This document shows positions 31,918-33,709 of a stretch of 64,000 nucleotides of DNA, piece after piece. Made by a program: the position numbers and the translations under genes. The stretch comes from Escherichia phage Turkey3: sequence record PQ471515.1. One strand, written 5' to 3'. The notes beneath the pieces are model-generated. The model saw nothing but the letters and a program-made list of their open reading frames with translations. It ran no database searches and had not been told where the DNA came from. Numbering within the stretch: position 1 is the first letter of the stretch; each line of letters opens with the position of its first letter.

Positions 31918-32478
31918 ATGAATGATATTGAGTTATTGGTACATAAGATTTGCACAATATCGTTAGTGCTGAACAATGCGAATACAGTACAGAGTTCCCT
32001 TTTAAGAATTAATAAAGTTGGGAGTAGTTTATATTTGGAAGTAAAAGCTGGTTTTGCAGGTCAGTACAATGATAAAATCAAAGAAGAAGTTAAGGGAAGT
32101 GAAGATGCTTTCATTGAGGTTTGTGCAACAGTTGGTTCAAATCCAATTTCAGTATCACCTTTAATGCGAAATGAAAATTCAGAATTTGATTCCAGTTTTG
32201 AAGGTTATTTGTGGTATAATTATGGTGATGATTATTTTATATATCAGAATTCCAAAACGGATTACAGTGAAGAAGGTATAAAATTCATTGATCCTTACAA
32301 TGAAGCAGAAGTATTTCAGACATCCCTAATATACAATACAAATCAAATGAAGTATCTTATGTTGTTTAGTACAATGCATTTGAATCCATTGAAAGATAAT
32401 TTAAAATTTTTCATTCGTTTAGAATTAGTTGATATTGCTTATGATCTTTTAATGCAAGGATATAGTTATGAAGTATAA
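31918..32478 (+). CDS. family B protein (C-terminal LLMQGYSYEV subtype)
   Basis: EAEVFQTSLIYN motif; paralog of 32555 gene. Confidence 0.6.
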   Translation: MNDIELLVHKICTISLVLNNANTVQSSLLRINKVGSSLYLEVKAGFAGQYNDKIKEEVKGSEDAFIEVCATVGSNPISVSPLMRNENSEFDSSFEGYLWYNYGDDYFIYQNSKTDYSEEGIKFIDPYNEAEVFQTSLIYNTNQMKYLMLFSTMHLNPLKDNLKFFIRLELVDIAYDLLMQGYSYEV

Positions 32479-32548
32479 AATGCTGTATACAAAAGATATG
32501 ATTTATGTTGAATTAGAAGTCAATGACGATGTATCCATCAATAGGTAA
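32468..32548 (+). pseudogene. truncated 26-codon remnant of MKYKMLYTL..YVELE gene
   Basis: Identical N-terminal codons to 33051 and 33383 genes, then premature stop. Confidence 0.45.
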
Positions 32549-32554
32549 TAATAT

Positions 32555-33061
32555 ATGAATGAGATAGAATTATTAGCACACAAGATTAGTACAGTAATGC
32601 TTATGCTCAAGAATAATCATTCTATGCATAAGTACATTTTTATAGGTGATTTACGCATAGAAGATAGATATGATAAATTATCGTTTATGTTTAAAGATGA
32701 AAGTAATGCAAAAGTTTGTTTTGCAGCATTTACCCAAGGCAATCCAGAACAAGCATCTCCTGTTATATACGAAAATAGTGAAGGGTATTTGTGGGTCAAC
32801 ACAAACGATTATTTCTTTTATGTTTTGAAACAAGATGATGAAGTAGAAGCACGAATTGATTTAATTGATATTAGTTCAGATTGTAGTGCTGAATTATTTC
32901 AGAAATCGTTATTATACAGTCCTCGTCAAATACATTATCTAAAGTTATTCAGTTCATTGTACGCGAATCCTTTAATTAAGGGTTTTAAATTTTATATCAA
33001 AATTCCGCACCTTTCAAACGTTTATGATATGTTAATGCAAGGATATAGTTATGAAGTATAA
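32555..33061 (+). CDS. family B protein (LMQGYSYEV subtype)
   Basis: SAELFQKSLLYS motif. Confidence 0.6.
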   Translation: MNEIELLAHKISTVMLMLKNNHSMHKYIFIGDLRIEDRYDKLSFMFKDESNAKVCFAAFTQGNPEQASPVIYENSEGYLWVNTNDYFFYVLKQDDEVEARIDLIDISSDCSAELFQKSLLYSPRQIHYLKLFSSLYANPLIKGFKFYIKIPHLSNVYDMLMQGYSYEV

Positions 33062-33362
33062 AATGCTTTATACATTAACATTAATATATGTAGAATTAGA
33101 ATCCGATTCAGATGCATGGAATTTGGTTAAAGAGGTCGATACCAATCAATGGTACATGGCAAATTTAGACGCACAGGTTGTTACGGATTATTTTATAGAT
33201 TTTAATACATTATCTGAAGAAGAATTTTTCCAAATGCAATTGGTGGTTGACATGTACGGACATGACATGGTAACATTAAGAAATATACAGAAAGTAGTTA
33301 ATGAATTCCAAAGCAAGAAAGATTATGAGGTAGGAGCGTATTATGACATCGACGTACAGTGA
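33051..33362 (+). CDS. family B protein
   Basis: LSEEEFFQMQLVVD; N-term MKYKMLYTL. Confidence 0.6.
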   Translation: MKYKMLYTLTLIYVELESDSDAWNLVKEVDTNQWYMANLDAQVVTDYFIDFNTLSEEEFFQMQLVVDMYGHDMVTLRNIQKVVNEFQSKKDYEVGAYYDIDVQ

Positions 33363-33382
33363 AAGCAATGAGTACAATAGTT

Positions 33383-33709
33383 ATGAAGTATAAAATGCTT
33401 TATACATTATCAGGGATATATGTAGAATTAGAACCCGATTATCCAGATGGATGGAATTTTATTAAACGCTCCGAAAGAAATACATGGCACATGGCACATT
33501 TGGATAATGACGTAATATTAGACAATTTTGTGGATTTTAATACATTATCAGAAGAAGAATTCTTCCAAATGCAATGTGTGCTTGACACAAAAGGATTTGA
33601 TGTGCTATTATTAAAGAATATACAAAAAGCTGTTAACGAATTAATATCCAATGACGAGTTAGGCAAAGTGAGGCTGTTCCATGATCTCGAAGTACCGTAC
33701 CAGCAATGA
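33383..33709 (+). CDS. family B protein
   Basis: LSEEEFFQMQCVLD; paralog of 33051 gene; start chosen by homology. Confidence 0.55.
   Translation: MKYKMLYTLSGIYVELEPDYPDGWNFIKRSERNTWHMAHLDNDVILDNFVDFNTLSEEEFFQMQCVLDTKGFDVLLLKNIQKAVNELISNDELGKVRLFHDLEVPYQQ

Follow-up and report, generated by a model that had tools for sequence, protein, structure and literature searches.

Duplicated L-to-S gene boundary as a probable homology patch for module exchange in the jumbo coliphage Turkey3

In the 64,000-nt stretch of Escherichia phage Turkey3 (PQ471515.1) analyzed here (the window, to whose full length all coordinates refer, with every listed feature on the + strand), a short direct repeat recurs where a gene of one small family (L; phrog_19795) meets a gene of another (S; phrog_33987), and an initial annotation of this DNA had taken the repeat for a junction left by unequal crossing-over between paralogs. 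We favor, with a probability of roughly three in four, a reading in which duplication of whole genes multiplied a conserved L-to-S boundary (boundary J), the copies of which were then used as homology patches for exchange; the boundary overlap would be repeated because whole genes were duplicated. Specifically, segmental duplications with non-homologous joints would have created new L and S copies, whose boundaries, with 28–43 nt of exact identity, could act as homology patches for general phage recombination. Loss or gain of a 583-bp module would then occur exactly from boundary copy 1 to copy 2, and alleles of L and S, conserved at their ends and divergent inside, would reassort among co-infecting phages. 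The gene order at the locus is L1, remnant, L2, S1, S2, L3, S3, and L4, while that in the relatives 121Q and PBECO4 is L, S, L3, S3, and L4, and the simple L, S order of these two phages identifies the L-S gene pair as the basic unit. The window comes from an Asteriusvirus-like jumbo coliphage. A BLAST search of 31.5–34.3 kb against GenBank phages matched only jumbo coliphages and Salmonella phages of the Asteriusvirus group, the nearest being fEgEco12, WPEC5, EC.P1, and CMSTMSU (98–99% identity), with PBECO4 and 121Q at ~75–79%. The region is AT-rich (~31% GC) and densely packed with short same-strand genes, the ends of which overlap.

The 30-nt string that the initial annotation had placed at the ends of the genes starting at 31918 and 32555 occurs exactly at 32455–32484 and 33038–33067 (0 expected, from 100 shuffles), and it proved to be the core of a longer, 36-nt exact direct repeat (32449–32484 and 33032–33067), so that a DNA-level repeat is indeed present at these junctions. 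This repeat is embedded in a 96-nt stretch of 80% identity (32439–32534 versus 33022–33117). Because L1 (186 aa, 31918–32478) and L2 (168 aa, 32555–33061) share only 58.6% DNA identity outside the repeat, the exact run lies far above background, with a chance of ~4e-9 per position at that identity. Copy 1 (32449–32484, 36 nt exact) encloses the C-terminus of L1, YDLLMQGYSYEV and stop (...LMQGYSYEV), which is the same in L2, and contains the L stop, the Shine-Dalgarno sequence AAGGA of S, and an S start codon at 32468. Copy 2 (33032–33077) equals copy 1 over 33032–33067 and copy 3 over 33045–33077. Copy 3 (33377–33409), the partial repeat already noticed before the gene at 33383, is exact to copy 2 over 33 nt and is without the upstream ...GCAAGGAT part, including the AAGGA Shine-Dalgarno sequence; 23 nt are common to all three copies. 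Depending on the genome, copies 1 and 2 are exactly identical over 28–43 nt.

Boundary J comprises the last nine L codons (L-M-Q-G-Y-S-Y-E-V) with the stop, the S Shine-Dalgarno sequence, and the S start, and it reads ...ATG CAA GGA TAT AGT TAT GAA GTA TAA, in which the S ATG precedes the end of the L stop by 11 nt and AAGGA sits inside the L codons for Q-G, 7 nt upstream of the S ATG. Such an 11-nt stop/start overlap, with the Shine-Dalgarno sequence inside the upstream gene, is the layout of a putative translationally coupled pair. An invariant block of 31 nt reaches from about −21 to +10 relative to the S start, an extent similar to that of a ribosome-binding footprint, and is partly dual-coding. 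Here, ATGCAAGGATA(T/C)AGTTATGAAGTATAAAATG is found at every L-to-S boundary in 12 relatives, the sole exception being ph0011, where 2–3 positions differ. The boundary sequence is kept even in single-pair genomes (121Q and PBECO4) in which the L protein and L1 share only 53% identity, which identifies it as an ancestral constrained boundary and not, as the initial annotation had it, a recombination scar. Third-codon-position identity among L1, L2, and the allele found in L1 position in other relatives (L1') tells the same story from inside the gene, as it is 25–55% over most of the interior (one bin at 68%), ~60–70% in two bins that hold conserved motifs, 76% over the first 10 codons, and 84–100% over the last 13. 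Since the conserved block lies on the S initiation region and is dual-coded, selection on translation initiation and overlap is a sufficient cause, and we infer that it is what conserves the boundary. Moreover, the L3-to-S3 boundary (34198–34242) has the same stop/start overlap layout in a diverged sequence, 73% identical to copy 1, from which it follows that the exact string reflects shared inheritance in the L-S lineage rather than functional necessity.

Two other causes of this conservation were considered and rejected. No promoter match above background was found in the repeat, where only 9/12-type matches lie over copies 2 and 3; promoter-like matches in the region number 70 against an expected 65 ± 7, and AGTATAAAATG is confined to the three boundary copies and is not a general promoter motif. 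RNA structure fares no better, as no stable hairpin was found in the boundary and the three copies fold inconsistently (folding z-scores of +0.63, −2.65, and −0.04), and a small AU hairpin seen there is not common to PBECO4-type boundaries. A further alternative is that ongoing gene conversion between tandem paralogs (concerted evolution), and not selection, keeps the boundary copies identical. In its favor, synonymous positions are identical across the boundary with the interiors saturated, the TH47-type form of the remnant described below matches the S 5' end beside it almost fully (47/49) with the window-type remnant nearest to another allele, and L1' and L2 of TH47 share their first 36 nt. 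However, the boundary sequence is also kept in one-copy genomes, where there is no conversion partner, and we consider conversion highly unlikely as the cause, even though it is inseparable from selection on these data.

If the repeated string is the ancestral boundary, the scars of array growth should be sought elsewhere, and the first follows L1. The 26-codon open reading frame (ORF) at 32468–32548 (MKYKMLYTKDMIYVELEVNDDVSINR and stop) had been described as a truncated gene, and its reading frame is as described, with the 5' end of an S gene only; positions 32468–32531 are the first 64 nt of such a gene. We rejected a truncated copy of the neighboring S1 as its identity, since the S part is nearest to the allele of A4 (46/48 nt), followed by that of PBECO4 (43/48), with S1 at 36/48. 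Between 32531 and 32532, the homology switches to TATCCATCAATAGGTAATAATAT (32532–32554, 23 nt), which corresponds to the 23 nt before the L start (TATCCATCGATAGGTAAATT-ATG in PBECO4, ECO103, and BF17; ATAGGTAATAATAT-ATG in A4); in PBECO4-type phages, this leader is the last 23 nt of the upstream gene U60. Hence, S codons 1–21 are retained and S codon 22 is set against the L leader at −23, that is, at non-corresponding positions with essentially no microhomology, and a remnant made of an S 5' end and the tail of an L leader constitutes the novel joint of a tandem duplication. As read from this joint, the duplicated segment (i) began 23 nt before the end of the upstream gene, took in the whole of L, and ended 64 nt into S. 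Truncation by crossing-over between paralogs, as proposed in the initial annotation, does not hold for such a 3' end. The same joint was read in fEgEco12, WPEC5, vB_Ec-M-J, CMSTMSU, TH47, ECO103, and BF17, which implies a single origin. In the last three of these, the remnant carries a +1 frameshift (MKYKMMYTPRYDLC and stop) and a 6-nt deletion, and the remnant peptide is therefore not conserved. A separate 12-nt tandem duplication, of ATGAAGTATAAA, was seen in BF17 within the first boundary copy (3164–3187 of its locus stretch).

The second scar, which the initial annotation had missed, lies between S1 (103 aa, 33051–33362) and S2 (108 aa, 33383–33709, with an in-frame ATG at 33368 that is the start annotated in GenBank relatives). 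Every S 3' end overlaps the start of the next L gene, as exemplified by S2/L3 (ATGATCTCGAAGTACCGTACCAGCAATGAAATTCAGTACA...). After S1, the sequence runs ATGACATCGACGTACAGTGAAAGCAATGA--GTACA and then, between 33376 and 33377, jumps into ATAGTTATGAAGTATAA, which holds the final five codons of L with the stop; homology to the S2/L3 overlap ceases between GTACA and ATAGTT. What is left is a collapsed L gene, a mini-ORF of 16 codons (33343–33393; MTSTYSESNEYNSYEV and stop), which opens with an L3-type start (first ~11 codons) lying over the 3' end of S1 and closes with an L end, the stop of which lies over the S2 ATG. L codon ~12 is thereby linked to L codon −5, again non-corresponding positions, and the microhomology at either joint is 0–1 nt. 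The duplicated segment (ii), as deduced from this joint, ran from 6 nt before the end of L through the whole of S and ~34 nt into the L gene that follows. This 332-bp S1 unit is confined to the window clade (seven records, GCA_050001325.1, and one Logan contig). Both joints have the form left by tandem segmental duplication, namely a novel joint of which each flank matches single-copy sequence, and at neither do the duplication endpoints fall in pre-existing homologous repeats. Both joints are non-homologous, crossing-over at the repeat was the source of neither duplication, and the real scars are these two joints and not the repeated string.

Alternatively, the 26-codon and 16-codon ORFs might be functional small genes or leader peptides rather than dead remnants. 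The longer one is unbroken in every window-type genome, with its end 6 nt upstream of the L2 ATG, the shorter one starts inside S1 and stops over the S2 ATG, so that both could relay ribosomes, and S2 has lost its AAGGA Shine-Dalgarno sequence. Intactness in the window-type genomes carries no weight, however, as these are ~99% identical, and TH47, ECO103, and BF17 have nonetheless kept L2 beside a frameshifted remnant with its 6-nt deletion, which makes this explanation an unlikely one. That the two mini-ORFs relay ribosomes to L2 and S2 by translational coupling is speculative.

The use of the boundary copies for exchange is seen most directly where the initial annotation had suggested looking, in a comparison with other isolates for copy-number polymorphism. 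The remnant and L2 together form a 583-bp module that some relatives have and others lack. In Ecwhy_1 (MH791411), the flanks are 98–100% identical to the window, and exactly the 583 bp between copies 1 and 2 are missing; its single boundary has an L1-specific left flank and an S1-specific right flank, with a crossover interval that is the 36–43-nt identical stretch. The same structure, with flanks again ~99% identical to the window type, is found in a separately sequenced 357-kb contig of GCA_050001325.1, which is 29 substitutions apart from Ecwhy_1 in 5.3 kb. In such cases, an indel between close relatives is bounded by two copies of the repeat and leaves a single chimeric copy. Parallel presence and absence is found on the L1' background, in PBECO4 versus ECO103, TH47, and BF17. 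When the module was counted across GenBank at ≥90% identity, L1 was accompanied by it in six records and the window and was without it in three (Ecwhy_1, ph0011, and GCA_050001325.1), L1' was with it in seven and without it in ~15, and A4 had L2 with no upstream L. L2 is 95% identical between the two backgrounds, whereas L1 and L1' are 53% identical, and these values together with the four allele/module combinations require recombination at or near the boundary. For T4-type recombination, less than 50 bp of homology is reported to be needed (PMC2839356, citing Singer et al. 1982), and conserved short elements have been reported to mediate such shuffling (PMC2839356). General homologous recombination is probably the enzymatic route. 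As regards an integron-like, site-specific cassette system, no recombinase was recognized by Pfam or NCBIfam match among the genes tested (a subset of the window ORFs), and no inverted repeat was found at the boundary.

These results also bear on whether the repeat is only a translation-initiation and overlap signal under purifying selection, with copy number changed by unrelated illegitimate events. That the boundary is invariant even in single-pair genomes, that the conserved block falls on the ribosome-binding region of S and on the dual-coded overlap, and that both duplication joints are non-homologous would all agree with such an explanation. Yet, the deletion in Ecwhy_1 and GCA_050001325.1 ends within the identical stretch and leaves one boundary intact, which would be rare for a random illegitimate deletion, the different sequence of the L3-to-S3 boundary indicates that function does not demand the exact string, and finding the module, with an identical internal joint, on L backgrounds as unlike as L1 and L1' requires flanking exchange. 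We therefore regard a signal with no part in exchange as distinctly unlikely.

Could the duplicated structure, or its absence, be an assembly artefact instead? Ecwhy_1, TH47, and CMSTMSU are UNVERIFIED records, and Logan unitigs from two runs (the end of one from ERR4504456 and the start of one from ERR11042643) break exactly at the boundary repeat. Against this, the arrangement was read in four independent deposits (fEgEco12, WPEC5, vB_Ec-M-J, and CMSTMSU), with BLAST coverage indicating it in WPEC3 and EC.P1 as well, L1 and L2 are, at 58.6% identity, too different to be collapsed, and the single-pair structure recurs in ~15 further records and two metagenome contigs. An artefact is thus extremely unlikely.

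Exchange seems to extend beyond boundary J to the wider L/S segment. In a map of identity to eight relatives in 40-nt bins, islands of ≥93% stand at the boundary, at S2/L3 (~33640–33760), and at L3/S3 (~34120–34280), and the interiors between them are 50–80% identical in every divergent relative. Conserved sequences therefore flank divergent, interchangeable alleles, and the breakpoints lie in them. In vB_Ec-M-J (4851–5426 of its locus stretch), the L3 interior (~33690–34150 of the window) is replaced by a 64%-identical allele in flanking DNA that is 94–100% identical, and the S2 and S3 proteins beside the swapped L3 are 96% identical. L3 (189 aa, 33681–34250 in the window), an older paralog, is deleted in A4 (from 4046 of its locus stretch) and ph0011 (from 3900), where its start and the codons for MTSKY, its first five, run in frame into its partner S3 (113 aa, 34237–34578, phrog_36216), with joints that differ between the two phages. 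Mosaics also occur among Logan contigs, one of which joins a PBECO4-type U60 to L1 and another of which has S1–S2 followed by a 67% L3 allele. One may go further and suppose that the conserved gene termini of the whole ~40-member array are maintained as recombination linkers and are more than a side effect of translation signals, the L-S segment being a cassette-exchange system that swaps, inserts, and excises hypervariable interiors, possibly as small circles, between co-infecting jumbo phages, with the mini-ORFs kept as ribosome relays; this extension is tentative and, on balance, rather doubtful.

Several points weigh against duplication followed by exchange at the boundary copies. The direct evidence of exchange comes from two close module-less genomes, which may represent one event, and of these the Ecwhy_1 record is flagged UNVERIFIED; besides, a 36–43-nt repeat can mislead short-k assemblers, precisely where the Logan unitigs break. 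Selection on translation initiation and dual coding could by itself fully explain why the boundary is conserved, and such selection is silent on any use in recombination. The case for recombination as a whole is drawn from comparing sequences, and as to the direction of change, gain versus loss, the event in Ecwhy_1 may have been a deletion, with an insertion into the window lineage fitting equally well. Lastly, no isolate with three or more L or S copies was found among the relatives, in IMG/VR (which yielded only 121Q), or in JGI metagenomes (two PBECO4-like single-pair contigs), and repeat-driven expansion is thus undocumented. What survives of the initial proposal of unequal crossing-over at the repeat as the engine of array expansion and contraction is accordingly homologous exchange or contraction that changes copy number, as in Ecwhy_1 and GCA_050001325.1; expansion beyond two copies and the origin of the duplications and the truncation, with their non-homologous joints, do not belong to it.

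As for the genes themselves, L1, L2, and L3 match phrog_19795 over their full length (E 5e-33 to 2e-55), and S1 and S2 match phrog_33987 (E 6e-41 and 3e-54). These families and phrog_36216 are all annotated as 'unknown function', and so membership gives no mechanism. A hidden Markov model (HMM) iterated from S1 and S2 gathers 40 window ORFs between 28.6 and 58.3 kb, L1–L4 included, which share the superfamily motif EE.FFQ.SL (EE.[FY]FQ.S[LT]), where F-Q alone is invariant. In a profile-profile comparison of S and L, only the 16 residues of this motif were aligned (probability 88%), and homology beyond it rests on the iterated HMM and a similar order of secondary-structure elements. A HMMER scan of 1.84 billion representative proteins returned only 123 relatives. 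No significant match was obtained in Pfam and NCBIfam for L, S, and their neighbors, in a PDB profile search for the L/S genes, or with a structure model of L1 (predicted local distance difference test score, pLDDT, of 73), and fold matches in BFVD were limited to uncharacterised proteins of RaK2 and slurp01. The ratio of nonsynonymous to synonymous substitution rates (dN/dS) between orthologous alleles is 0.28–0.75, with one pair above 1, and dS between L1 and L2 is ~1.1. L and S are real, fast-evolving accessory genes. Elsewhere in the same superfamily, the adjacent 112- and 113-aa paralogs at 28596–28934 and 28949–29290, 83% identical over 211 nt, are a younger tandem duplication. Upstream of the EE.FFQ.SL array, ~28 tandem genes of 65–90 aa with an LGTNYQ-type motif occupy 22400–28600 as a separate paralog array, which contains the DNA repeat family D7 in 11 copies.

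Upstream of L1, where U60 (60 aa, 31393–31575) precedes the L position in relatives, the window has in addition a 109-aa gene, SP109 (31587–31916), located between U60 and L1 and having a signal-peptide-like N-terminus (MNKIILALTFILSMFANTVQA). SP109 is without a counterpart in all close relatives, and among 50,697 phage records only A4 has a homolog (82% nt and 67% aa identity), which there precedes L2. The insertion is bordered on each side by AATATGAAT. Further upstream, a perfect 12/12 sigma-70 consensus (TTGACA, 17 nt, TATAAT) occurs at 31108–31136 within the ORF at 30858–31253, and right after L4 there is a terminator-like hairpin with a T-run (35042–35063), followed by an 11/12 extended −10 promoter (35073–35101). 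The promoter at 31108–31136 and the hairpin and promoter at 35042–35101 may delimit an L/S transcription unit.

A search of the literature for Asteriusvirus paralog arrays, their changes, or this locus found nothing relevant. Asteriusvirus jumbo phages give tens of kilobases to tandem small-gene families of unknown function, and the locus offers a nucleotide-level example of how such an array may change, by duplication and then by loss, gain, or allele exchange that leaves expression unbroken. Its sequence also provides definite primer sites with which the rates of these events can be measured, though it does not reveal the roles of the genes. Among systems known from elsewhere, the 'genomic accordions' that Elde et al. 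are said to have described in 2012 for poxvirus K3L are similar in that a segmental tandem duplication creates a novel joint and later homologous exchange changes the copy number. They differ in that accordion copies are near-identical and recent and the whole unit is the substrate, whereas here the copies (L1/L2) are very divergent, only the 36–43-nt boundary is left as substrate, and the states are of one or two copies only.

In function, the locus corresponds to the linker model of Botstein and Susskind, as outlined in PMC2839356, which was developed for temperate lambdoid phages and functional modules. Allelic modules (L1/L1'/L2, S1/S2/Sx, and the L3 alleles) are likewise flanked by conserved exchange sequences, and mosaic breakpoints fall at gene borders. 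Here, however, the modules are single accessory genes in a ~40-member paralog array of a virulent jumbo phage, and the linkers are no separate sequences but the conserved ends of these genes.

The best-documented form of this idea in lytic phages is the modular shuffling mediated by PeSLs (promoter-early stem-loops) in T4-type phages (Arbiol et al. 2010, PMC2839356; Comeau et al. 2014, PMC4122927). There, too, a large virulent coliphage has a hyperplastic region whose gene borders carry repeated copies of a short conserved element. With both, close relatives differ by an indel that is bounded by two copies and leaves one chimeric copy, and the targeting of borders preserves the expression of neighbors. 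Yet, PeSLs are intergenic cassettes of ~100 bp that combine a sigma-70 promoter with a stem-loop terminator, whereas boundary J is a coding, translational element (stop/start overlap and Shine-Dalgarno sequence) of 31–50 nt with no promoter and no stable hairpin, and we accordingly rejected its identification as a PeSL. Mini-circles, moreover, have been shown for PeSLs, while exchange at boundary J is deduced from sequence comparison. PeSL-like cassettes do occur elsewhere in the window, with at least 22 intergenic copies of ~78 nt at 3–21.5 kb (among them 3023–3100, 10635–10712, 11203–11280, and 18733–18810) that are laid out as AAAAAGTACTTGCAA, 17 nt, TATAAT, and a GC-rich hairpin, that is, a sigma-70-like promoter and a stem-loop. 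A second promoter-like repeat, TATTGACATAGTTTGATAGTACTGGCATAAT, is present at 9050–9126 and 9345–9421 (77 nt, 100% identical, and 295 nt apart) and also at 12527–12603 and 20228–20304. Set beside these systems, the locus is a clean new example of known modular shuffling, and the idea of conserved linkers, familiar from lambdoid phages and from the PeSLs of T4, is extended by it to an element that is purely coding and translational.

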